In this document: positions 3,001-62,030 of the stretch, one piece after another
Layout of the letters: each line of letters opens with the position of its first letter
How positions within the stretch are numbered: position 1 is the stretch's first letter
Assembly (NCBI GenBank): GCA_038087875.1
Contig: CM075989.1
Location: 10,356,001-10,420,000 of the forward strand
Reading direction: 5' to 3'
Origin: Malacoraja senta
Lineage: Eukaryota
Length of the DNA stretch: 64,000 nt
The notes under the pieces: model-generated
Database searches by the model: none
Told to the model about the DNA's origin: nothing
Seen by the model: only the letters and a program-made list of their open reading frames with translations
Position numbers and translations under genes: made by a program

Positions 3001-4189
3001 CCCAAAATATATAAGTTTGGAGAACCCCAAACATTCAATAGCACCAAACGGTCACTGCATTTAACTCGTTAGCAGGAGTCTCAAGTTTATTGAATCTAGT
3101 CCAGTGAATAACTGCCTTTGCCATGGAACAAGACACGAGTCAGCAACTGTTGTCTGCACTGTCCTTGGTTCGTTAAATGGCCAGGCTGAAAGAAACCACC
3201 AGGCACCAGGGAGCTGAGCACAGTATCACCAGCCAGGCCCTCGGGAAGTTTCATGGTGATCCCGAGACTATCACTTAGCCAGAAACCCAGGAGGAAGTCA
3301 CTCTCGGGACTCGTGTCCTCCCAAAAACATGGAGAAAAGGGGTTGGGGGAAGAAGCGCAAGTATGGCAGCTGATCCTCAGAATGTAAGCATGGGACATGT
3401 AGTCTCCCTGTTTCCTGTGAACCCCCTCCAAGAGAAAGAAAGAAAGAAGGCCATATGGCATCTGGCCTGGCTTAGAATGAACATTTGGTGTGGGGATCTC
3501 ATGGAGCTGTGTTAGTGTCATGGTCACACAAGTGTTGGGAGCAATGCCAATGCCTCAGGATGTCCATAAATCAAATAAATCAGGATCTCTTGCTTGTACC
3601 GAATAGGTTTTCCTGTTTTTATTGGTTGCAACCTACCTTGATGCAATACCAGTGAGCCGTTTACAGTTATGTATATGAAATGAAGATAATACATTGGTCA
3701 AAAGTAAAATGGGGCAGTGCTTCTCATTTCCTTGGATGTTTAGAGGCCTGTCTAAATGGACTCAATGAGTACAAGTTTAACTACTCGTCTTAAATTATCT
3801 GTGCAGTAGATAAAATGTCAAGCCCAGTGTGGCCCAGTTAAATGTTCACCAGTGCTCTGCAATCCCTTTGTAGTCCCATCCATTCCTTAGTATTCATCTC
3901 TTTGATCATGCCCAATTGTTGGTCATTCACATGTTTCCTTAAGTGGCAACCGAGTTAAAATCTAAGCTAATGATCATCATGTGAGAGTGTGCAAAATCCT
4001 GCTGTACACAGAGGCTGCCATGCTTTTAATATTACCATGCTTTAATGAGAATGAGGAACTGGGAAAGAACACATTAGTTTTCAGTTGGAGAGGGTGGATG
4101 CAAGGATGGTTAAGAAAAGGGGAACAGCTGTGATGGAGCGATTCCAGGATTGCCAGGATGATAAACTGGACTATACCGGTTGGGCCACA

Positions 4190-4625
4190 TTTACAATACT
4201 AGGCAAAGTCCAGTGCGACACATTTTAAGGAAGGTGTGAAGGCTTTAGAAAGGATGCAGAAAGATTTTCCAAAATTATTCCTAGGATGAGGGCTTTTAGT
4301 TGTGTGGAAAAGTTGTTCGGTGATCAACAGAGATTGTGAGGGCATCTCACAGGGGAATTTAAATTGATAGAAACTATTCCCGTGAGTGGAGGGGTCAAGA
4401 ACCAGGGGGCATAGAATGAAGCTAGAATGACAAAAGAACCAAATGTGACAGAAACGTTTTATTTAATGCAGAGTGGTTGGGGTATGGAATATAAAGCCAG
4501 GTAGGAGGCAGAGGCGGGTCCAATTGCAGCATTCAAAAGGGAGAATGAATTGGCAGGACTGGTGGCACGGGAGCTCGACTTGGATTGTTCTGATATAAAG
4601 GTGGTTTGAACCCAAATAGCCTTCA
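4190..4625 (+). mobile_element. Old CR1-type LINE 3' fragment
   Basis: Degenerate version of the CR1 3' region seen at 6785-7400 (agaaccagggggcatag, cagagtggttggggtatggaat). Confidence 0.55.
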
Positions 4626-5317
4626 TCTTGTCAGGCAAGAATCTGGAGGACCACAGACACCCCCTATTCCCACCATGCCCTAACTTAGCTGGTCCGGTGG
4701 AGATAATGAACTAGACGCCTTCCCGATTGACTATGCTGGGGCAGTGCACTTCTTGAAGGCCGTGTGACAGGAAGAGAGCAGATCGCCAAACTCCAGCAGC
4801 CACGCCAAGTTTGAGTCTCACAGCCGCCATGGGAACAATGTGACTTATGATCACTAGAGTTCAGAGAAAGGTTCCCAAACTGAAAGTCGCCGGCTGCTTT
4901 TGGTGGAATGCTACAAACAGGCACCGGAATCAAACCACAGGCAGGCTCCCTGTATCGATCCCAATCACAAGACACCTACCACTCTTTACCACAAAGGAGA
5001 GACAGCAAAGTGCAGTCACTTCTGCAAAATGGGAAACTGAGTAGTGGATGCACAAGGAAGACCACACATAGAATGGTCTGATCATGTTGTTCAAATGTAC
5101 TTTAAGAATAAAATAATTCCTTTCGAAATTGTGCCTTGGGTTATTTTGACCACATCCGAAAGACAGGGAAGGCCCTCAGTCTGGCATCTGAAGGCGCATC
5201 TCAAAAACCATAGCTTCACCAATGTGTCAGCTGGGTGTTGACCCAGGAATGGATCTTAAATCTTTGGAACTGGGCAAGAGAATAACCAACTGAGTCATGG
5301 TTGAATGCTCACTTTAG

Positions 5318-5548
5318 TTAAACACATTCATGGAAACAGGCCCTTCAGCCCACGTTGACCAACAATCACCCGTGCACTAGTTATATCCTACACACTAGGG
5401 GCAATTCTTTGGAATGTGGGAGGAAACCAGAGACCCACGTGGTCAAAGGGAGAACGTACAAACTCCGTACAAATAGCAGCTGTAGTAAGGTTTGAACCCA
5501 GGTTTCTGGTGCTGTAAGGCCGCAAACTCAACCACTGCGCCACTGTCA
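5318..5548 (-). mobile_element. tRNA-derived V-SINE (HE1-like), internally deleted
   Basis: Reverse complement of the SINE at 26552-26877 (gtggcgcagtggttgag...ttacagcaccaga...gggttcaaa; gtacgttctccc; gggcctgtttcc). Confidence 0.75.
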
Positions 5549-6784
5549 GTATTCCTCATGTAGTAATCAAATGCTCAATGTCCTCTTGCCTGTGTGCGGG
5601 TAGTTTATACAATTGTCATTCTCAAACCCAGTGTGCGCCCAACTAGGATCTGCGCATTGCACGCACCAAAGCATGGCAGTATGTGTCTGGCCCTTAACAG
5701 AGAAGCAGTTTGTTGGTGGAAGGGTTGAATAACAAAGAATAAAAGCGATTGCCAAAAACACAAAGGTGGCAGCAGCCCACGACCCTTCTTGCAGCTGCAG
5801 CGACCCAGGTTCACCCTCCCATGGTGCCACCTATTTGGAGTTTGCGTGTTTTCCCTGTGACTCTGTGTGTTTCCTTGAGTGCTCCGGTTTCATCCTACTT
5901 CCCAGACATGCTGGCTGGTAGGTCAAATGGCTGCTCCAAACTACCCTACTGTACGTGGGTGAGGGGGACATTGGAGAGTTGATAGAGACGGAAGAGGGAA
6001 AGCAAGTGTGCATTAGTGTGAACATGTGCTGAATGTCAGAGCGACCATGATGGGCAACAAATTCTGTTTCCGTGCTCTGTTATTAACTTTTACATCTGTG
6101 TCAAGAAATCACTGCGGGGATATCAGTGAAGGCAGATTAATATCTAGCATCCTGAAGGAGCCGGATAAGTATCCAGAAGGATGGGATTTGCGGGACAATG
6201 GAGAGGGGGGGGGGGGGGGGGGGGAGGGGAAGGCTTAGGGGAATGGGCCTTGGTCTTGCATAAAGCCAGCACATACTCAATGGGACAAATGGCCTCATTC
6301 CATAATGTGACAAAAGAGAGACAGGAATTAGAGTGGGGGAATCCTGCAAAACTCCCATCACCTTGCAAGGTGAGAGTCTACTGGAATCGCAGCACACAAG
6401 ACCCATTCCTGCTGGTTGGGGCACAAACCAGTCTTCATGCTGGAACATGCAATTCCATGGAAAGACCAAACTTAAACTGTGCCCAGGTCAACATTAGTCC
6501 TTCAAGTTTTGACCAGAGCTTACTGGGCATCAGGAGCTTGCTGTGTCCAAACTGATTGCCTTGTTTCTTTACATTACAAAGGTAACTGTATATCACTGAC
6601 TGCAAAGTACCTTGGGATGTCTTGATAGATGCTCTGGAAGTGGGCACAGAGGGTGCAGGGAGGATAGAGTCGTAGGACCATGGTAAAGCCCACGTCGCAT
6701 TGGGCAGTGCCAGTCAGAGTCCTGGGAAGATCGGGGTTTCCAAAAGGCTCCAGACTTCTCCCCAACAGTGATGGCCTCTGTTAA

Positions 6785-7400
6785 TTTATAACAAGAGGAA
6801 TCGAATATAGGAACAAAGAGGTCCTTCTGCAGTTGTACAGAGCCCTAGTGAGACCACACCTGGAGTATTGTGTGCAGTTTTGGTCCCCTAATTTGAGGAA
6901 GGACATTCTTGCTATTGAGGGAGTGCAGCGTAGGTTTACAAGGTTAATTCCCTGGATGGCGGGACTGTCATATGCTGAGAGAATGGAGCAGCTGGGCTTG
7001 TACACTCTGGAGTTTAGAAGGATGAGAGGGGATTGAAACATATAAGATTGTTACGGGTTTGGACACGCTAGAGGCAGGAAACATGTTCCCGATGTTGGGG
7101 GAGTCCAGAACCAGGGGCCACAGTTTAAGAATAAGGAGTAAGCCATTTAGAACGGAGACGAGGAAACACATTTTCTCACAGAGAGTGGTGAGTCTGTGGA
7201 ATTCTCTGCCTCGGTGGAGGCAGGTTCTCTGGATGCTTTCAAAAGAGAGCTAGATAGGGCTCTTGAAAATAGCCGAGTCAGGGGATATGGGCGAAGGCAG
7301 GAACATGGTACTGATTGGGGATGATCAGCCATGATCACATTGAATGGCGGTGCTGGCTCGATGGGCCGAATGGCCTACTCCTGCACCTATTGTCTATTGA
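6785..7400 (+). mobile_element. CR1/HER1-like LINE, 5'-truncated 3' end
   Basis: ORF remnants LYRALVRPHLEYCVQFWSP...IEGVQRRFTRLIP and SRTRGHSLRI...FSQRVVSLWNSLP; 3' tail ggccgaatggcctactcctgcacctattgtctattg. Confidence 0.9.
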
Positions 7401-10400
7401 TCAACCTACAATCATTGCATCCCTAAAATAACTCATGTGGGTAGTGAGGTGGGATACAAATATAAATATATCCCACCTCATTACCCACATTTTTTATTTA
7501 TTAACAATGTTCATTAGCATTGAGGAAGTGGCAGTATATTGGCCGATTTATGATTACCAAATAACCTGGTGACAGTCTTGATCCGAGCTGACATGAGAGT
7601 GAACATGTGGAGGAAGTCTGATTGCTGGCAACAGGAGGTTGGTAATCCAGGGATATCCTTGGTTGTGATATGAAATCACAACATGTAACAAGAGGGTTCT
7701 ATAACAGTGAACAACTTTGCCACCTTGAGCTCTTATGAATGCCTCACTATCCTTGGAGTTCGGAGTACACTGGGATCAGCAGCCAAAGCCCATCTAGCAA
7801 TGGTTGCACCGAGCCTTGAGAACCACAATTCTTATATACATTTATCAGCTCATTAATAAAATAATAATTCATGTTATTGGTTTATTAATTTGTCAGCATA
7901 CATTCTATGCTTGGGTCTGGAAGATGATTCCAAATTCAACAAGGGATATGGGGTAGTAGGAAGAGAAAGGACAAAAGGTGCCAGGTTTGGGATGTGGGGG
8001 GGGGGGGAATAGAAAAGAGCATGTTCACAGGTGGACATATAAAACTACGGGAAAAAAAACCAGCTGGTCCATCAAGCTGTTGCAACCAATGAGGCATACG
8101 ATTCCTTATCTTCATCTCACCTACCCCACACTGTACAACCCTTATAATCTCCACAGAGGAGCAAACAGGGGAAAACCGCCAACTAAGGGAAAACCAGATG
8201 CACTGCCTTCTGCAAAGAACAGTTCTCTAGCCCGCTGTAAGGCTAGCAGATGAATCGCTGGGCAATGGCAAATCCTTCAAACCTACATCCCAATTGGAAT
8301 CAGTGCCATCAGAATAGGAGGATTGTTTATTCTATATTGGGAGAAATATTTCCAGCGTTTGAATTTCAAAATCTTTCCTGGTTTATTTTCCTAGACTGTC
8401 TCCCAGCTGAGGCCCTTGCAACAAATCTAGCTGGCAATGCTCAGCATTTACAAATCTTTCGATTCCGTTTCTGGGCCAGTAAGTGTGTATTAGACTTAGG
8501 CCAGCACTTACACCAAGGAGTAGGGAGGGAGGGCTTATGGTCAGACAATGGTCAGCAACACTCTTCAGCTGCTGGTCCATCCTTCGTGGAATAGGACTTC
8601 TAAATACCTCCAGTAGCAGCTGAAATAGAGCCAGACACTACACTATTCAAATGAAACCACTTCATGGCTATAGCTGTGGGAGCTCAGCAGTGCCAGCACA
8701 CAACTAAAAATGGGCCAGTTAATCATTATGAAGTTCTTCCCCTGCCGAGGCTCCAGAATTTCAAACCTGGACGGCAGCCCATTTTCCATTCAGTTAACCC
8801 CTCATGTACAAAGCATTCCTGATGGAACACATACCCTTTTGGTAACGTCTGCCCTCTGGGTTATAATACACAGTGCAGCCAAAGCCATTCTGCCTAAGTT
8901 GTCCATGTCAGTGTTTGAGACCTCCCACCTTGTGACCTCCTGTACTCTTCCATCTTTCCTTTTTTATGAATCCAAGCTATTGGGCTAAATCATTTCACTT
9001 GGGAGAAACACATCAAGTGTAACATTGCAACTATGGACTATTACTATGGTAACCATCACATTTCAATATATTATAGACCAGAGTCAACCATTCGGCCCTT
9101 TGGAAGGGCTACCCGAATAATTCTGTTTTCCTGCTCATCCCACATAGGCGAGCAAGAACTTCCTTTTTAAGTAATCTAATACCCTTTGCGGGGTTATTAT
9201 TGAACACACGTTCCTGCCCTCTCAGGCACAGCTTTCCAAATCACAACAACTCACTGTGTAAAAACAATGTTTCTCCTTACTCTTTAACAACTAAAGTGGA
9301 TCTGGATTTTTTCCAACTAAACTTTATTAGAATTTTTCTTGAACACAGCAAAGCATTTAAAGTAGTTCGTTCCAAGTAGTTCGGGGATATTTTAAGTCTT
9401 TGAAGAACATTTTTTACTGTGCTGCAAAAAGCAACGAATAAAATCTAATTCTTAGACCTCAATCAAGAGCTCATATGCTAGGCTGGCACAACAGTGCGGT
9501 ACTGCAAGCATGCTGCACTATTAGCGATGCAGATCGCATCCGAATGCTCCAATAGTTCATTTGTATGCATAGTAGCGCATCAGGTAGTGATGCTTTTCAT
9601 TAGCTTCAGGGGCCATGACCCGAGGTGTTGCTTTTTGTGAAGCTTACACATTCACTCAATGGCCATGTGGGTTTTCGCAAGTGTTCTGTTGTTTCCTACC
9701 ACATCCCAAAGGTAGGGTATTGTGATTTGCCCCAAGTGTGGGTGTTTGGCAGGAGAATTGTGAATAGTTGATGGACATGTGAAAGAAAATAGGCAAGAGG
9801 GAAACAGTTGGGGGTGGGGCAAATGGAAGTGAGAGAAATGCTCTGAGAGTCAGCATGAACTCAATGGAGTGAATGACTTCTACCTTTTTATTAAAAAAAG
9901 AAATTAGAAAAGATTTTAAAGAACTATTGAAAGGAGTTCTGTCATCACTGCTAATATTCAGCCCATAGTGAATGCCATTAAAAGTAAATCAGACTGATAT
10001 TCCTCTTTGTAGGATCTTCCTATCAGGAATGGTATCTGCCATTTTTACCAATAATACTGTCCACAATGTGAACCATCACATAGCAGCTTATATTTGAAAG
10101 CACTGTATAAATACACAACTTCCTTTTGTTAGTGCTGCGTTGTTCAGTTGATCTGGTGCCAACTGCACTGACCTTAATAACTCTCAATAAACAAAACAAA
10201 AACACCTCATTAGGGCTAGCTTTGCTGATAATCTTCCACCAGTACCAAGAGCCAAGAGCTTCTAATAGACAACATGAGACATTCTATGACTCTGGTTTGA
10301 TAAGGAGGAGGTACTTGGACAAACAACTCCAATACATCTTAAACTATCTCTCTAGGGAATCACTGTTGCTCAGAAAGGACATTGTAGAGGGTTTTACATC

Positions 10401-11355
10401 TCACGTGCAGATAAGCTGAAATAAAATTGAAAACGTTGGAAACACTTAGCAGGTTAGGCAGCATCTATCAAAAGAGAAACAGGGATAATATTTCAGGTTT
10501 TTTAAAATAGCATATTTGCAAAGTCTGCAGTATATTCACTTTCAATAATATTTAATCTTATCTGCCTTGGGTAACAATGACTTCCTAAAGATGTTTTAAA
10601 CTGTATTGCTGGTCAGTCTCTACTCCTTAGCAAATGTTCACTTGCCTGAAACGTTAACCCAGTTTCTCTCTGCACAGATACAGACTAATTTGCTGAATAT
10701 TTTTTGACATTTTCTGCACCATCTATGCTGAAATATATCCTCAAACCTATGTCAATAGTTAAACTGTGTGCCAACAAAGGTACATGATTTGTGCCCATTT
10801 AACGCTGTGGAAGGGGCTTGGGGAGAAATAAACGAAGTGCGAAAGATAAGCCAAGAAAGAAAATGAAATAAAAGTTAAAGAGGAGGAATATTAATGAATA
10901 TCCTGGCCTCTAGTTTTTCAGAATGTAATCCAACAACATTTAATCAGCAAAGCTATCACAATATTTTGAATCATGCTGCCAAAACGTAGTAAAATAAAAC
11001 AATTCAAAAGACCCGACAGAGAAAAGATCCAAAACACTCATGTACGCACTCTCATTCCAGGTAGTAAAGGATTCTTGTAGAAACAAGGAACTGCAGATGT
11101 TGGTTTACAAAACAAAGACACAGGGTGTTGGAGTAACTCAGTGGGTCAGACAACACCCCAGGAAAAATGGATAGGTGATGTTTTGGGTTGGGACTCTTCT
11201 TCACAGATTGTGGGGGTGAGGTGGGGATGAGAAAGGATTATTTTTCTTCAAGGAGCACCATCATGGAACTGCTTCTACTTGAGGTGCAAAAACACCAGTA
11301 TTGGAGGCAATCCAGTATGTTCAATTGAAAGAGTGGGGTGGGAGAGAGTCTAAGG

Positions 11356-12639: not shown

Positions 12640-13490
12640 GGTGTGGGCACAGAAGAGGGGGCAAGGGAGTATTAGTTGAAGTTGGAGAATACATAGTTCA
12701 TAATGTTAGGTTGTAAGCTACCCAAGAAGTTGTGGTACTGTTGCTCCAGTTTGCGTGTGGCCTAACTCTGGCGGTAGTGAAGGCAAAGAACAGAAAGGTC
12801 AATATGGAAATGGGATGGAGTTAACTGGTTGGCAACTGGGCACAGCTACTCTATGCTTGGTCTCGTTAATGTTAAGGAGGCCACATCAAGAGCATCAAAA
12901 TATAGTAGACGATAAGATGCACATGAACCTCTATCGCAACTGGAAGGGCTGCTGGGGCCCTTGGATGGAAGTAAGAGAGGGGTTGTAGGACATGTTTTAC
13001 ATCTCTTGCAGTCGCAGGGGAAGGAACCCTGGGAGGGAGTGGGCTGGGTGAACCAAGAAGTTGTGGAGGGTGTGGTCTCTACAGAAAGCAGAAAGGAGTG
13101 GGGATGGGAGATGTGATTAGTGGTGGGATCACATTGAAAATGGCAGAAATGTAGGGAATGATGTGTTGAATGCAGATGCTGGTGAGTGAAAGGTGATGAC
13201 AAGAGGAGCTCTATCCTTATTCCGTCTGGGGGGGGGGGGAAGAGGTAGTAAGAGCGGAACTGCGGGACACAGGAGGCATGGATGTAGGCTCTAGCTACAT
13301 TAGCATTGGGGGGGAGCAATTCGGAGAATAGACCATGCCTGTTGAAGAAAGAGGACGTCTTGAATGGACTATGGTGGAAAGCTTCAGCGTGGGAGCAGAT
13401 ATGGCAGAGATGTAGAAATTGAGAGTATGGGATGGTGTCCTTGCAAGAAACAGGGTGGGGGTGTGAGGAGGTTATGTCGAGGTGAAATCA
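12640..13490 (-). mobile_element. Degenerate Penelope-like element (GIY-YIG region)
   Basis: Minus-strand ORF remnants CDPTTNHI...PTPSQGSFPCDCKRCKTCP, homologous to the Penelope copy at 61365-61900. Confidence 0.75.
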
Positions 13491-15259: not shown

Positions 15260-15945
15260 TAAGATCATAAGTCACAGGAACAGATTTAGGCCATTCAGCC
15301 CATCGAGTCTGTACGTCATTCGATCATGGCTTATCTACTTCCCCCACTCAAACGCATTCTCCTGCCTTGCCTCCCCTCCCCCCCCCCCCATCCCATAACC
15401 TTTGATGCCCTTAATAATCAATAACCTATCAATCTCCACTTTAAATATACCCAATGACTTGGGACTCCACAGCCATCTGTGGTAATGAATTCCATATGTT
15501 TATCACCCTCTCGCTAAAGAAATTCCTCCTCAAATCCATTCTAAAAGGTATGTCCTTTTATTCTGAGAATGTCAGGTACACAAAAATGCTGGAGAAACTC
15601 AGCGGGTGCAGTAGCATCTATGGAGCGAAGGAAATAGGCAACTTTTCGGGCCGAAACCCTTCTTCAGACCTTGGCTGTGGAGACCCAAGTCATTGGGTAT
15701 ATGTAAAGCGGAGATTGATAGGTTATTGATTATTGAGGGCATCAAAGGTATGAAGAAGGGTTTCGGCCCGAAACGTTGCCTATTTCCTTCGCTCCATTGA
15801 TGCTGCTGCACCCGCTGAGTTTCTCCAGCATTTTTGTGTACCTGGGATTTTCCAGCATCTGCAGTTCCTTCTTACACAATATTCTGAGAATGTGCCCTCC
15901 GGTCTTAGACACTCCCACTACTGAAAATATCCTCTCCCCATCTAG
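15260..15945 (-). mobile_element. CR1-type LINE 3' fragment interrupted by a composite insertion
   Basis: Reverse-complement CR1 tail (ggccattcagcccatcgagtct...atcatggct; aaattcctcctc). Interrupted at a duplicated tattctgagaatgt. Confidence 0.75.
15573..15879. mobile_element. Composite insertion: two inverted copies of the hammerhead-motif mini-element around an ~80-bp inverted local copy
   Basis: Arms 15573-15669 (-) and 15751-15877 (+); 14-bp TSD tattctgagaatgt at 15559-15572 and 15880-15893. Confidence 0.85.
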
Positions 15946-16644
15946 TATTTAGTGCATATATTCTGCTTCCATAAAGGTTTGATAGATACTGGAAACTGAT
16001 CTGTGAGCACAATGGGGTACAGCACAGTTGAATGAAGGTAAAAACATAACTTTTACAATGCAGCAAACCTAGGAATAAAAGTCACCCTCATTACCAGTGT
16101 GAGATCTCACTCACCCAGGTGTGACCCGACAAGAATAACCAAATGCAGCAGCCAATTAAAGGAACATTTTGACATTTTAAGGCTCTTTAGTCCCACGGAG
16201 GAGAGATGATGGTAAAAACACACATATCCTTTTCGGCCTGAAGTATGGTGTTGATAGTTGGATATAGTTCTTTGGGGAAACATACTATATTATTGTCCAC
16301 GGAAATGTACCGAAGATATGTACATACAAAATGCGCAGGCTCATTATACATTACTATTGGATAGAGAACCAATGAGCAACTCATTTAAGACAATGATACA
16401 ATTAGTTACCCCTTTCATTTCATCTTACACTTTAGCCATATAATAATGAAGTCTGAAGAATGGTCCCAACCTGAAATATCACCTATAAATTTTCTCCAGA
16501 GATCTGCCTGGACCTGCTGAGTTTAGCATTTTGTGCTTATCCTTAATAATGAAATAAGACAAGTAATTACATTGCTCCAAGTGAGTATTTCCCACAGAGA
16601 TAACTCATTGGATTATGGTCCTCAGAATGGAGATCACTTTTGGA

Positions 16645-20110: not shown

Positions 20111-20401
20111 ATCCACCTCCTTAAAAAGAGGGCCAGTTCTTCGAGAGTTTATTTGGTCTATTGAGCCTGTGATAGTGCTTTCCAAGTGCAGTCTATACTT
20201 GTGCATCATGTCTTGATGTTCACAAGCTCATTAAATGACCGGGACAAGATTAAAAAATGAACCTGCGTTGCTACTGCTTATACTAAACACCACAATTAAG
20301 TACTAGCACCATCTAGTAGCTTTGACAACCCAGATAGCCACACATGGCCAATAAATGATTTGTATGCTGGGAAGGTGTAAACGGAACTCTCATTATATGT
20401 G

Positions 20402-20498
20402 GTACACAAAAATGCTGGAGAAACTCAGCGGGTGCAGCAGCATCTATGGAGCGAAGGAAATAGGCAACGTTTCGGGCCGAAACCCTTCTCCTGTCACG
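20402..20498 (-). mobile_element. Hammerhead-motif mini-element (Penelope-derived), young copy
   Basis: Near-identical to 35966-36060 in reverse; 14-bp TSD tctcattatatgtg at 20388-20401 and 20499-20512. Confidence 0.85.
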
Positions 20499-20671
20499 TC
20501 TCATTATATGTGACCTTGATCCTTAGAAATGGGGAGGAACATGGAAGGCCACGAAAACATTCTATAACCATGTTCTGTGTGTTCATTAAGTAGCTGTGTC
20601 AATAATATTGCCTTTCCCGTTCACCATGCCACTCCACCAACTCCTGTGTCCCTTCCAAGTACTTGCATCAA

Positions 20672-31502: not shown

Positions 31503-31559
31503 CCAATGGCTTTTCTTCGTCATTTGGAGAGAATCTGGAGTAAGGAGGAGGTGGAGAAT
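31503..31559 (-). CDS. smad6: SMAD6 exon 2 (57 nt; PY motif): (D)SPPPPYSRFSPNDEEKPL
   Basis: Acceptor ctcattttcag| and donor TTGG|gtaagt; in frame with exon 1; matches the SMAD6 ESPPPPYSR..P.DE.KPL exon. Confidence 0.95.
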
Positions 31560-31710: not shown

Positions 31711-33990
31711 GGCATATGCAAACTGCATATTATTGCCACTCCTTCACCTAAATAGCTTTGGAACTTCTTAGGGGAAAAAAGGAGAAAGAAAACGAGTTGA
31801 AATCGATCTCATTTCAAAGGGATGATTCCAGATCTGATCTCCTCCCACAAGGACAGAGAGACAGAGAGGGAGAGGGGAAATATTTCAGTCGCGTTCGCTG
31901 GGGTTCTGGTAATCAATTGGGAGTTTTAAACAAACCGTTTAGACAGGGGAATTCCTTAAAAAGGGAGCTTCTGGGAGCACCACGTGAAAAGGCGCGGCCA
32001 GGTGAAAGAGCCTAGCCACTTCTCACAGACTCTGAGAAATCAAGGAAGAAACAGAACAAAAATAACTGCGGATTTTCTCATTTTTAAAAAGCGACATTTG
32101 CGTGTACGCGATGTGAGGGCAAGGATCTAAAACTGGCCGATTCGCCCGATAGCTTGAATCGGTAACATAAAAAGGTTATCGCGTCACGCATCAGTAATTC
32201 TTAGCTATTTGTAAAAATGCAACAGAACTTGAGACAAGGCTGTTTTATTAAGAGACAGTAGTTCCTTTATATTGGGCCAAAATTTAACATACTGATGCTT
32301 TTTAAACATAAATGTTCGCTATCAACTGCCCCAATATATATATATATCGGTCGTCTTATTGGTATTCCAGGGTTACGGTTTAAGGTGAGACTTAAAAAAA
32401 AAGAATGGTTTGCAACCCGCTTTGCATGCCCCCACCCTCCAACCCAACACGCCTTCTGCCAACTAAGGAGTCTCAAGGATGGAGATGGTGAGTGGGCATT
32501 TTTGAATAGACAATCTTCAGGTTAGTTGGCATTCACATCCCAAGTACTCGAACCCCTTTACATCATCGAGTATTGCGGAGAGCACCCGTGAGTTAATCTG
32601 AATGTGCCTTGTGAAAATTAAGTTTATTTTTTAAATATTATTAAAAGCGTCTGTAAAATGGTGACCTGAATAATGAAATGGTCAGTAATTAAATTCTAAA
32701 CTGAGCAAATATATTCCTTTTTTTTTTAAACTCAGATTAAATTTCACCAACGTCATTGCATATTGGGGTGTTCACTAAAATGAAAATAATCCTTTCCACA
32801 TATGCAATAAATAAAGGTTACAGGAAAAAAAACTTTGAAACGAAAATCCTACTCTAATCCAGTGTTGTGAAAACCTCTGCAAACCCAATGCCTGGTCCTA
32901 CGAGGCGTTGACATAGATTAAATTAGGTAGCCCACCAGATCCCGTCTGTTGGGACATTTTTTTAAAACATTTATTTATTAAGACATGCTGTTGACAGTTT
33001 CATGGTTTCAGTCTTAGTGTTGCTTGTGGGAAGAAAATGCACAAAAAGTGTATTGAAACGCCTGGGGCCGCATACCCCGTTTCATTTCAATCACTCAGAG
33101 TGATCAGATTTTCATAGGTTGCCCAGTGTCGAAATATCTTTCTCCATCTCCCCCTCCCCCCAAATACCCCTCTAATCTAGACGAAGGACATCAAGTTTCA
33201 CCTGTTGCCCAGCCCTGTCATTACCTGTCTGGGATACATCTGTTGAAACCTGATGAATGAGTGAGACAGACAACCAATTTACAAATGGCTTGAAATGTAC
33301 ATCTCTGTAATGAATGAAAACTGCAGCTCTCGTGAATGAAATATAGCCCGGCCTATAAACGAGATAAATTCCCATTTATTTCTGTACGTTAAATAATTTA
33401 TCCCAATCTGTTTACAAAATCAAATGCAAATTCCTACAAACTGTATCTTGTAAGATTCACTTTTCCTAATTTTTTTAATAAATATTTCGATTTTGACTTA
33501 ACAAAATGGCATTTGTAAAACTATGGAAAATATGATCCTCGAGACTGACAGTGTCATATAAATCTTAGAGTATTTTTCGGAAAGGGGGGGTTAATATACT
33601 GACACATAATTTACGTTAAACTGCAGGCTCAGAATCATTTCCAAAGAAATGTGACATTTGTGGCGGGCTGGCTCATACTCGGTCCATGTGCTAAAAATAA
33701 ATAGACTCGGCGCCCAGGCACTGAGATGCTCACGTGGCCTCTCAAAACCTGGTGGTGGAGGTTCAAATGGGAGCCTTTCACTTGCAACCCTCAAGATAGG
33801 TTCTGTAGCTGTTTAACTTCTAGCCGAAAAAAATGAAACCCCGTGGCAAGCGAGGCACCCAACAACACGCCGCTCTCTCCAAAAGAGAGCTTAACACGAA
33901 TGCAACTGCACAAAGGTGGTGAATCCCTCGGGGATTTTAAACGTGTGAATGGGAGAGGGGGATGGGGGAAAGAAAGAATAAAAAGTTCAC

Positions 33991-34408
33991 CTGGGCCGTA
34001 CAGCCGACTGAAGTGATAGGGGTTGCAGCAAACAGTAGCGTGGTCCGCGCTCCTGGAAAAACCCTCGCAAGGATAAAGCCTCTTGAGTTCGAAGAGCTGC
34101 TTGAGATCAGGCCACCTGAAAAGTCTACAAAGCAAGAGCTGGGGGGCCAGGGTCTGCTTGCCAACCCTCACTTCGTTCCTAGCCATTAGGACACAAGCAG
34201 TATGCAGTCCCCCTCTGCTCTCCACCGCCTGAGACAGCAGTTCCAGGGGCTTTTCCTTCAGTCTCTTCAGCAGCGAATGCGTTACTGACTTGAGCTCGTT
34301 TAACGATCCGGCCGGGTCGCTCCAATCCTCCGTCTCCTGCCCATTGCTCCCCGTTACCCGGCTTCGCCAAAGTCGCCGTACAAGGCCCGAACGTTTGGAT
34401 CTGAACAT
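33991..34408 (-). CDS. smad6: SMAD6 coding exon 1 (N-terminus and I-SMAD MH1-like domain), 418 nt, phase-1 end
   Basis: Translation starts [17 protein letters not shown], the SMAD6-type N-terminus (SMAD7 has MFRTKRSA). It contains [23 protein letters not shown] and [11 protein letters not shown]. The exon ends CCAG|GTGAAC at 33991/33990. Confidence 0.95.
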
Positions 34409-35749: not shown

Positions 35750-36150
35750 GCAGGGTGAATTTTGGTCTCAAGATACTTCCCCTTTGAAATTGCGCCAACT
35801 GATATTTTAATGCCCCGGAGAAAAGACAGAAAATAAGAAATAGGAACAGAAGTCGACCACTCGGCCTTTGAGAGAATTACGTCTCATCCAAATGCAATAC
35901 ATCCGACAGTACGGCAACTTCCTTTATACTGCACTAGACTCAGGAGTGGGGTTGGAAAGCCAACTCTGAAGAAGGGTTTCGGCCCGAAACGTTGCCTATT
36001 TCCTTCGCTCCATGGATGCTGCTGCACCCGCTGAGTTTCTCCAGCATTTTTGTGTGTACCTTGGAAAGCCAACTGTTGACTGAAGTGCTGGTTGACCTCT
36101 CAGCTCTACTGACTTATCGGTCAGAGTGAGAACTGGGGTATTGGGGCAGA
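35750..36150 (-). mobile_element. Degenerate Deu-domain SINE (SacSINE/AmnSINE-like) hosting the mini-element insertion
   Basis: acgtctcatccaaatgcaatacatccgacagtacggca resembles the Deu core. Similar degenerate copies lie near 5130-5305, 47200-47490 and 50080-50310. Confidence 0.45.
35966..36060 (+). mobile_element. Hammerhead-motif mini-element (95 nt), young copy
   Basis: Starts CTGAAGA-A-GGGT-TTCG-GCCC-GAAAC-GTT; 14-bp TSD ttggaaagccaact at 35952-35965 and 36061-36074; sequence matches the Penelope terminal region at 61285-61365. Confidence 0.9.
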
Positions 36151-39295: not shown

Positions 39296-39434
39296 GCATT
39301 TTTATTTCAGATTTATAGAATTCAGGTTTTTTTTCTGACGATTTTGGACAATTAAAATTTACTGCACCAATCTATAATTCCTCTGGAATCATTTTCTGTA
39401 CTCTCACATCTTATTACCAGCTCTCTTTCATTTG

Positions 39435-40565
39435 TTGATTTTAGCTCTGCATTCAACACCATTGTGCCAGAGCTACTACACTCCAAACTTTCCAAGTTGA
39501 CTGTGCCTGAACCCCTCTGTCAGTGGTTCACCAGCTTCCTGACAGACAGGAAGCAGCATGTGAGGCTGGGAAAGCACATCTCGGATCCGCAGACCCTCAG
39601 CATAGGAGCACCGCAAGGCTGCGTACTCTCCCCTCTCCTCTACTCTCTCTACACCAATGACTGCACCTCCACTGACTCACTCCTCTGTCAAGCTTCTCAA
39701 GTTTGCAGACGACACAACCCTGATTGGACTGATCCAGGATGGGGAGGAATCTGCCTACAGACAGGAAGTGACACAGCTGGCGTCCTGGTGCCATCACAAC
39801 AACCTGGAGCTCAATGCTTTTAAGACAGTGGAATTGATTGCAGATTTTAGAAGAGCTCCCCCTCCCACCATCAACAACACCACAGTCACATCTGTGGAGT
39901 CTTTTAAGTTCCTGGGAACCATCATCTCCAAGGACCTTAAATGGGGGGCCACCATCGACTCCACAGTCATAAAGGCACAACAGAGGATGTACTTCCTGCA
40001 GCAGCTGAGGAAGCACAATCTGCCACAGGCAATGATGGTCCAATGCTATATGGCCATTGTAGAGTCTGTCCTCACCTTCTCCATCATGGTCTGGTTTGGC
40101 TCAGCCACCAAGCACGACATCCGGAGGCTGCAGCGAATCGTCCGATCAGTTGAGAAGGTTATTGGCTGCAACCTTCCCTCCATTGACGAACTGTACACTG
40201 CAAGGGCCAGGAAGCGAGCGGGTAAGATCATCTCTGACCCCTCTCATCCTGGTCACAAACTCTTTGAATCACTTCCCTCTGGAAGGCAACTCTGGACTGT
40301 CAAAGCTGCCACAGCCAGACATAAAAACAGCTTTTTTTCCACGAGTAGTAGCTCTACTCAAGAACCAAAAATCTGTAGCCTCCTTTTGCTCTGGTATTTT
40401 ATTTAATTCACATGTTTAATCGATAATGTTTCATTATTAATGTTTTACGTGTCATTCATAACTGTCACTGTATGTCATGTTGTCACTTGCGGGTGGAGCA
40501 CCAAGCCAAATTCATTTTATGTGAATATACTTGGCCAATAAACTTATTCATTCATTCTTTCATTC
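39435..40565 (+). mobile_element. Rex1/Babar-type LINE, 5'-truncated (RT C-terminal half, frameshifted)
   Basis: GAPQGCVLSPLLYSLYTNDC, then a frameshift to KLLKFADDTTLIGLI...KFLGTIIS...KAQQRMYFL...DPSHPGH; tail aataaacttattcattcattc. Confidence 0.9.
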
Positions 40566-41619
40566 ATTATCACCTCTTAAATTCCACAGTCTTGCTCCCA
40601 TCTTAGATTTTCTCTTAAGAGCTGATTGTCTCTCATTTTTTGCAGTTCTGATGAAAAGTCCTCGACTTGAAATGTTAACTGTTTTTTCCTCTCCACAAAT
40701 GGTTCCTGACCTGATTACCATTTTGTTTCAGATTAAGGCAACTGTCATGTTTTGCTTTTGTTTAAAACATGACTTGTGATCTCCCCTTCAATCACATTTT
40801 CAGTCATTTCCTTCACTCCTCTATATTCGATTTACAGTCATTTTACCTTTGTGAAGCACATGTGAATATTTGCAACACTTGCCTTGTTGTTCCCCAATAT
40901 CCCTAATGCCCCCTTTATGTTCTCCCCAATATTGTTGGTCCTTTATCGGGGCTTTCATGAAAGTTTAAATACTTTTATTTTGTTGTTCGCTCATCCATGT
41001 CCTATATCCATTCTGAAAGTGAATCTATCACATTCAAAACTGGCCGCATCATTTCCAGTTAAGCATTCAAAATATTGATTGTGGCCACCTGATGTAATCT
41101 ATGTCATTCACACTCAACAAAAGTAATTGTGGTGATATACTGCTTTACCACATCAAAGCTATTTGAACAAGGGATTGCAGATTCCCCTCCAAGATTTTTA
41201 ACCTAATTTGGAAAGATATTGCTGGTCCTTTATCGGGGATGGTTATAAATCCTGGAACTCAGTACCCAATAACATTATGGGTGCAGCTTCATTAGAAGGA
41301 CGGCAGTGGTTCAATGGTGAAGCTCACCACCATCTTCTTAAAGGCAAATAATGGACAATAAACATTCTCTTTATTGGTGATACTCAAATCCAAAAAATGA
41401 ATTAAAAAAAAACTACTTTGGTATTATGGTTCTTAAGGTGGTGGCAGTGCCAATTCTGGCTATTAAATCAGTAATAGCCCACCAAAGACCATGATCTGTT
41501 CTTATTCTTGGTCTGACACATTGAGAGAAGTATCCTTGCTGTGCATATGGATAATTTGCACTGGCACTGCATTCCTGAGATTGCAGTGTTTGCCATAGCA
41601 GTGTGATAGGCATCTAGTT

Positions 41620-61094: not shown

Positions 61095-62030
61095 ATGAGA
61101 CCAAGCGCAGGCTTGGCGATCGCTTCTCACAACACCTCCACTCAGTTCGCTTCTCACAACACCTCCACCCCAGCTTCTCCAATTTCAGGTAGTCCTTGCT
61201 TTCTCCTTCCTTCCCCTCCCATTCCCAGCTCTCCCACAGCCTACTGTCTCCGCCTCTTCCTTTCTTTTTCCCTCCCCCCCGACATCAGTCTGAAGAACGT
61301 CGCCTATTCCTTTGCTCCATAGATGCTGCCTCACCCGATGATTTCTCCAACTTTTTTGTCTACCAATGGGATCCCACCACTGGCCACATCTTCCCATCTC
61401 CTCCCCTGTCGGCTTTACGCAGAGACCGCTCCCTCCGTAACACCCTGGTCAATTCATCCCTTCCCACCCAAACCACCCCCTCTCCTGGCACTTTCCCTTG
61501 CAACCGCAGGAAATGCCACACTAGTCGCTTTACCTCCCTCCTTGACTCCATTCAAGGACCCAAGCAGTCTTTCCAGGTGCGGCAGAGGTTCACCTGCACT
61601 TCCTCCAACCTCATCTATTGCATCCGCTGCTCTAGGTGTCAGCTGCTCTACATCGGTGAGACCAAGCCTAGGCTTGGCGATCGCTTCGCCTAACACCTCC
61701 GCTCGGTTCGCAATAACCAACCTGATCTCCCGGTGGCTCAGCACTTCAACTCCCCCTCCCATTCCGAATCCGACCTTTCTGTTCTGGGCCTCCTCCATGG
61801 CCAGAGTGAGGCCTACCGTAAATTGGAGGAGCAGAACCTCTTATTTCCCTTGGGCAGTTTACACCCCAGTGGTATGAACATTGACTTCTCCAATTTCAGG
61901 TAGTCCATGCTTTCTCCTCCCCTTCCCAGCTCTCCCTCAGCACACTGTCTCCACCTCTTCCTTTCTTCTTCCCCCACCCCCACCCTCACATCAGTCTGAA
62001 GAAGGGTTTCTCCAGCATTTATGTCTACCC
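61095..62030 (+). mobile_element. Penelope-like element 3' part (GIY-YIG endonuclease) with a partially duplicated terminal region
   Basis: PGTFPCNRRKC...FTCTSSNLIYCIRCSRCQLLYIGETK.RLGDRF..H...PVAQHFN...GMN; terminal region repeated at 61170-61365 and 61885-62025, containing cagtctgaagaa. Confidence 0.88.

Follow-up and report, generated by a model that had tools for sequence, protein, structure and literature searches.

Short insertions of a Neptune-clade Penelope-like element in Malacoraja senta often start at the 5' edge of a minimal hammerhead and are probably run-off copies of the RNA front

A 95-nt insert in the genome of Malacoraja senta is the final 95-nt piece of a Penelope-like element of the Neptune clade, likely copied from an internal start of reverse transcription and completed by run-off at the 5' end of the RNA. 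It lies on the plus strand at 35966..36060 of the stretch analysed here (the window, 64,000 nt). The class of element, the ribozyme, the tail and the inverted pairs are already known. What appears to be new is where such short copies (stubs) start, their 5' ends lying at the 5' edge of the hammerhead and not at its cleavage site. Open-access main texts yielded neither a description of 5' ends that accumulate with a cap mark at this edge nor one of a contrast between first-pass and second-pass copying. The focal stub runs from the hammerhead C3 to the first 3' end of the element, is tailless, and stands as a single unit in unique flanks. A sequence-only reading had proposed an insertion of this length, and it is borne out by the 14-nt direct repeats that bound it, i.e. 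target site duplications at 35952..35965 and 36061..36074 on the plus strand, the final T of the left one possibly doubling as element base -1. The insert corresponds to the terminal 93 nt of an intact 4-kb element (L114), with 91 identities, two substitutions and a 2-nt insertion.

Every part of the ribozyme motif that had been read from the letters is present. On the plus strand, the minimal type I hammerhead core at 35966..35993 (CUGAAGA, an extra A, and GAAA) matches a strict descriptor, stem II pairs GGGU with GCCC (35974-35977/35982-35985), and the palindromic ACGU (35989-35992) precedes a GUU site with predicted cleavage after 35993. Positions are counted hereafter from the hammerhead C3 as 0, which places predicted cleavage between +27 and +28. 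Minimal hammerheads have been described in the pLTRs of metazoan Penelope elements, where they occur mostly as single motifs linked with truncated elements, and fish Xena, Poseidon and Neptune carry them (Cervera and de la Pena, 2014; PMC4209133). The present core resembles those described there in its type I form, its extra base between 9 and 10.1, its G10.1-C11.1, its palindromic 15.2-16.2 and its lack of loop 3. It differs from them in a helix II of 4 bp and in helix I, which the parent and 44 of 60 descriptor matches form with 2 bp and the focal copy with 1 bp; a 2-bp helix I is reported for Drosophila Penelope in the same work (PMC4209133).

The strict descriptor, which demands the core, 4 bp or more in stem II, pairing of 15.2-16.2 and NUH, found 60 matches in 1.4 Mb of main-chromosome sequence taken as evenly spaced stretches; three shuffles gave no match. 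By extrapolation there would be ~83,000 descriptor-positive copies in the genome, compared with ~4,000-9,000 reported for coelacanth and frog (PMC4209133). The Rfam hammerhead models, which had been recommended as a check, gave no match at E up to 5-10. Covariation in stem II, which had been expected from its seemingly conserved pairing, did not emerge either: each pair had 1-3 two-sided changes in 236 of the 247 core-bearing copies, and the sole stem change at the level of subfamilies is from U-A to U-G. The decay of inserted copies resembles that of neutral DNA and is most rapid at CpG, including G12 and the ACGU palindrome. The differences among four subfamilies avoid the core in six of six cases (P ~0.04), although the copies were partly selected by their core, which biases this conservation. 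As far as these alignments tell, selection is visible only among source elements, not among inserted copies. Positions -5..+32 are identical at 33 of 38 sites next to an endonuclease that is 35% identical, and the 100 nt upstream agree at 51 of 92; the conserved module starts at TCAGT. The two loci with this divergent endonuclease, 35% identical to that of the young subfamily, are L021:1783-2567 and window positions 12678-13064. The hammerhead module of L021 is nearly identical to that of the young subfamily despite the divergence, which implies either strong constraint or an exchange of ends between lineages.

Genome matches to the insert often extend upstream into a pyrimidine-rich 3' UTR and then into a reading frame. 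In intact elements (L111 and L114), a pLTR of 417-418 nt is followed by an ORF of ~1,240 aa and then by another pLTR, and one unit measures 3,987 nt. The single ORF encodes a reverse transcriptase and, at the C terminus, a GIY-YIG endonuclease, whose motifs were also read by eye; the 1,235-aa ORF of L114 matches RVT_1 (E 6.6e-6) and GIY-YIG (E 0.0016), both below the Pfam cut-off. A CX4CxxC linker lies between the reverse transcriptase and the endonuclease in L111, and a CX2-5CxxC zinc-finger linker has been given as a mark common to Neptune and Nematis (Craig et al., 2021; 10.1101/2021.04.23.441226). The parent is classed here as a Neptune-clade EN+ element, the clade being assigned from the linker and the host range alone. 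It shares with the Neptune EN+ elements described by Craig et al. (10.1101/2021.04.23.441226) the single ORF with reverse transcriptase, CX4CxxC and C-terminal GIY-YIG, the partial pLTR tandems, the inverted 5'-truncated copies, the optional tail of 30-40 bp and the heavy truncation. It departs from that description in a long proline-rich N-terminal region within the ORF of ~1,240 aa, and in a truncation strongly concentrated at one site.

The hammerhead-bearing sequence terminates every copy. In tandems, whose partial pLTRs range from 417 to 1,782 nt, it also precedes the reading frame and is connected by a 35-nt tail to a start codon near +163. The 3' ends of copies fall at +87-103 or +124-130 from C3 (about +93 or +129), an inverted copy lies upstream in 77 of 246 copies as a head-to-head partner, and copy lengths form a continuum from 90 nt to full length. 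The two ends, the inverted partners and the heavy 5' truncation reproduce the known Penelope pattern. Many young, intact and near-identical elements are present in the genome. Full 4-kb units stand head-to-tail in L197/L198, L245/L246 and other pairs, and the ORFs of some are intact. At L014:1247-2836, a stub lies within the reverse transcriptase region of a copy of the same family, with a 9-nt duplication. L041 and L212 are two independent insertions whose upstream flanks are identical over ~30 nt, a hint that a site in another repeat is preferred. The ORF start codon of L114 sits in a good splice-donor-like sequence (AAG/GTATG, L114:3547-3558), and an out-of-frame upstream ORF of ~41 codons begins near +50 and overlaps the start codon of the long ORF.

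Related copies exist in the window at or near the places listed by the sequence-only reading, although only those at 35966 and 40648 satisfy the strict descriptor. The latter belongs to an older diverged relative (40646..40713, plus strand) with AAGUC/GACUU in stem II, and fragments of another reverse transcriptase element, LINE-like by eye, lie beside it at 39356-40406. A young stub on the minus strand (20402..20498) starts after CUGA, with its 5' junction holding ~9 additional bases, and is flanked by a 14-nt duplication (20388-20401 and 20499-20512). Two older stubs were found by nhmmer, one with a broken core (11115..11205, minus strand) and one with a broken stem III palindrome (16449..16541, plus strand). 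The hammerheads at 61285, 61992 and ~42855 have deletions, the first two belonging to a pair of adjacent 5'-truncated copies on the plus strand (61095-61364 and 61365-62030). The second of this pair encodes a zinc-finger linker and a GIY-YIG domain, and the claim that the focal sequence forms the terminus of a Penelope element near 61095-62030 holds, as it adjoins this GIY-YIG fragment.

The segments at 15573-15669 and 15751-15877 had been counted as two copies. They are instead the arms of one composite insertion (15573..15877), in which head-to-head stubs surround an 81-nt spacer within a single 14-nt target duplication (15559-15572 and 15880-15893). Both cores are damaged: the minus arm, which is tailless, has lost the ACGU palindrome, and the plus arm, which is tailed, is without C3. 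The spacer (15670..15750, plus strand) is an inverted copy of the flank at 15398-15475, identical at 74 of 78 positions, with an alignment score of 136 to its own flank; the highest score in loci L031-L190 was 84. The alignment suggests that target DNA close by was switched to in the course of insertion, and the arrangement resembles the snap-back junctions described for R2 (PMC11371274). Flank-copied spacers are not a rule: 5 of 33 spacers scored at least 40 against their flanks, and none exceeded a quarter of the maximum.

The 1.4-Mb sample contained 453 element ends, which extrapolates to ~630,000 genome-wide, of which the young subfamily would contribute ~50,000. So large a number, together with the proposal of the sequence-only reading that the insert is a ribozyme-bearing short element mobilised by Penelope, brings up a non-autonomous family of the SINE or retrozyme type, transcribed from its own copies and reinserted by the Penelope protein. 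The part of that proposal which stands is a Penelope-type minimal hammerhead spread by the machinery of the element; a separate retrozyme or SINE does not follow, because the stub is the terminus of an autonomous element, the lengths are continuous and variants are held in common. One young variant type does occur only as short copies (11 short and no long, compared with 8 short and 14 long in the other; Fisher 5e-4), and tailed stubs could be transcribed if their promoter were internal. Long copies, however, amount to just 68 of 444 overall, so that 0 of 11 is not unusual, the other variants are common to short and long copies, and most stubs are without a hammerhead core or stem I. In addition, the template of the lizard element must extend ~55-60 nt past the start sites (PMC11167929), a stretch absent from the stubs. 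Non-LTR retrozymes are likewise described as derived from pLTRs, non-coding, equipped with a type I hammerhead and sometimes monomeric, but their units stand in tandem with a hammerhead each (10.64898/2026.07.22.740005), whereas the stubs are dispersed singly or head-to-head and are continuous with an autonomous element. Copies in the stretches that were read are single or head-to-head pairs, and no array in which the short unit runs head-to-tail was noticed there. A separately transcribed family is improbable.

The evidence on how the stubs were made comes from their 5' ends. In the young subfamily, scored against one natural reference, 19 of 36 5' ends fall in -13..+10, a peak at 17.5 times the background rate (Poisson P ~1e-17, the interval being picked post hoc). 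Across all subfamilies, 360 of 444 copies were scored, 84 being omitted for a low alignment score, and 141 of the 360 start at -6..0. Just 11 of them start at +23..+32, and hammerhead cleavage was rejected on this count as the source of the 5' ends. Among non-inverted copies, the starts at -6..0 make up 33 of 80 tailed and 66 of 164 untailed copies; because the two peaks coincide, the stop is fixed in position, not in distance from the start of synthesis, and abortive synthesis that depends on distance was rejected by the same coincidence. Target duplications lie directly next to the start of 17 among 77 stubs, compared with none of 200 mixed controls. An artefact of the divergent 3' UTR was also considered for the peak and rejected, since the peak persists in the young subfamily, against one reference, with adjacent duplications.

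Full-length copies carry the same boundary a second time, where it would be met on a second pass. There are 42 such junctions; 31 of them extend as far as +10, and one of these 31 stops at -13..+10, compared with 19 of 33 on the first pass (Fisher 1.6e-6); within the youngest type alone the first pass gives 7 of 21 (P 0.005 against the same 1 of 31). After removal of 12 copies that overran the fetched DNA, the second pass is 1 of 19 (P 2e-4 against 19/33 and 0.046 against 7/21). The second-pass copies had been selected for their young age, and some lie in a common array. The near-absence of a second-pass stop rules out a fixed sequence barrier on a linear RNA. Two other groups of second-pass ends were seen in intervals picked post hoc. 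Five events at +15..+31 (7.7-fold) lie mostly upstream of +28. Six events in different flanks cluster at -311..-335 (~9-fold; 5' pLTR starts in L111, L192, L198, L207, L214 and L219), possibly a second start site or a barrier; nearby first-pass ends lie at -300, -312, -364 and -381.

The main rival to run-off is a checkpoint on the first pass, in which the stubs would be premature 5' truncations, formed as the polymerase exits the conserved module of hammerhead and stem-loop, to which the protein would bind, by a change of state or by a protein bound at the pyrimidine tract, with second-strand joining often immediate and no end of the RNA at -3. It accounts for a position-fixed peak at the edge of the conserved module and for its absence on the second pass. 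The 5' ends are moreover spread over -6..0 and +1..+10 with no sharp peak, and several junctions have AGT or GT microhomology, as such a checkpoint would allow. Against the run-off inference it also counts that a circular template would hide a barrier of protein or structure on the second round. What the checkpoint does not predict, while fitting the rest, is an untemplated G at one exact position, and we regard it as unlikely.

Run-off is supported by the identity of the stubs to the ends of intact elements, and it points to an RNA that begins at the module edge. TCAGT, with its A at -3, opens the conserved module and resembles an initiator by comparison with the general initiator consensus. 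TCACT has been called initiator-like in a rotifer pLTR (PMC3846280), and in LINE-1, full-length insertions from capped RNA are marked by an additional G (PMC11702581). If a capped RNA started at A-3, an untemplated G would be expected before AGT. Among 138 stubs, 19 match exactly to AGT, and G is the next base upstream in 10 of them (5 expected, P 0.012). The same was found in five of five cases at 75 other loci, so that pooled counts are 15 of 24 in the AGT class (26% expected, P 2e-4); a held-out 100 kb contained no informative copies of this class. In long copies, G occupies the position before AGT in 0 of 132. The four GAGT cases with a visible duplication have the G within extra bases between the duplication and AGT, and in four cases without G the duplication is adjacent to AGT or overlaps it. 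No excess of G exists across all start classes (24 of 77, 21 expected). A T often precedes the G in GAGT stubs, and a subfamily beginning TGAGT is, from the sequences, a possible alternative source of the G.

The start of the Drosophila Penelope RNA counts against a start at -3, as it lies well upstream of the hammerhead, being separated by 46 nt from an intron of 75 nt that extends up to the hammerhead (PMC2377424, PMC4209133). The same intron raises the idea that the stub boundary is a 3' splice site and that the stubs come from RNA that had been spliced. All subfamilies do have a pyrimidine tract and CAG ahead of the core, and the geometry is like that of the Drosophila intron ending at helix I (PMC4209133). 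Yet a match to upstream sequence was seen for 17 of 138 stub flanks, and not one of the 17 stopped at a donor GT, no GT..AG joint ending at the boundary was among the joints listed for three probable RNA runs, and many stubs keep AG or CAG with the duplication adjacent; splicing is therefore a most improbable origin. Contigs from the three probable RNA runs, which come from other organisms, have the same boundaries as loose ends.

In the run-off reading, transcription would start at the initiator-like TCAGT, with A at -3, which would place the two start sites of reverse transcription 96 and 132 nt from the probably capped front of the mRNA. Copying from these internal sites to the front of the RNA would yield a stub, often with an untemplated G. 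The Poseidon element of the lizard Anolis (PAc) provides a parallel, as its reverse transcription begins internally at two sites that match its two genomic ends and its main substrate is uncleaved RNA (Frangieh et al., 2024; PMC11167929); here, too, there is no sign of a hammerhead-cleaved RNA as the main template. The present element differs from PAc as described there (PMC11167929) in its clade and in its start codon, which is ~163 nt after C3, past the tail, and not in stem II. Minus-strand strong-stop DNA of LTR elements is similarly a short cDNA that extends from a start site near the RNA 5' end to that end. The stub differs from it in being target-primed and integrated, with no tRNA primer and no strand transfer shown.

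Long copies would need reverse transcription to begin further along an RNA, on a template without an end at -3, that is, a circle made by the hammerhead or a multimeric read-through RNA. A linear RNA of two units starting at -3 would produce second-pass stops at -3, and such stops are rare. A circle and longer multimers, which exist in the genome, would both fit the long copies; a circle that arises when paired hammerheads cleave and ligate was proposed in 2014 (PMC4209133). A fuller version with two forms of RNA, in which capped linear mRNA gives the strong-stop-like stubs as the commonest product and ligated circles give all long and more-than-unit copies, is offered only tentatively, as we lean against it more than towards it.

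For the focal hammerhead itself, the prediction is little or no activity. It is unlikely to cleave with a stem I of 1 bp, a dimer fold that is not optimal (-13.3 kcal/mol with stem I uncounted, against a predicted optimum of ~-25) and published relatives that are weak or depend on protein: minimal hammerheads cleave weakly as dimers (PMC4209133), and that of the lizard element cleaves only with its own protein (PMC11167929). The predicted stability of the stub fold is ordinary (z ~-0.2 to -0.3) and increases with the tail (z -2.2). With the tail, L114:3380-3519 is predicted to form a long stem-loop in which the tail pairs with +45..+60 or alternatively with the hammerhead core. This modelled stem-loop is a candidate protein-binding site and a possible off-switch of cleavage. 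The hammerhead would serve the source element, and in inserted stubs it is a decaying passenger.

The sequence-only reading had also placed copies inside the SMAD6 pre-mRNA and beside its promoter. An inhibitory SMAD gene, presumably SMAD6-like as judged from its N-terminus, has its first coding exon on the minus strand (33794..34408), further exons near 31550 and 30450, and an MH2 exon ~32 kb to the left of the window. The focal copy does lie ~1.55 kb upstream of the start codon, but on the opposite strand, and intronic copies do exist, but those in sense orientation have broken cores, so that the relevance of the hammerhead copies to SMAD is weak.

The find of a ribozyme is in itself ordinary, and it is the statistics of the junctions that bear on which RNA Penelope copies and on the role of the hammerhead. 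They predict that transcription starts at one base, and they would account for an excess of solo ends over full elements that runs to orders of magnitude. They also argue against a two-unit linear RNA from -3 as the main template of full copies. If the reading with two forms of RNA is true, the contrast between first and second pass would be a genomic record of Penelope transposition from a circular template.
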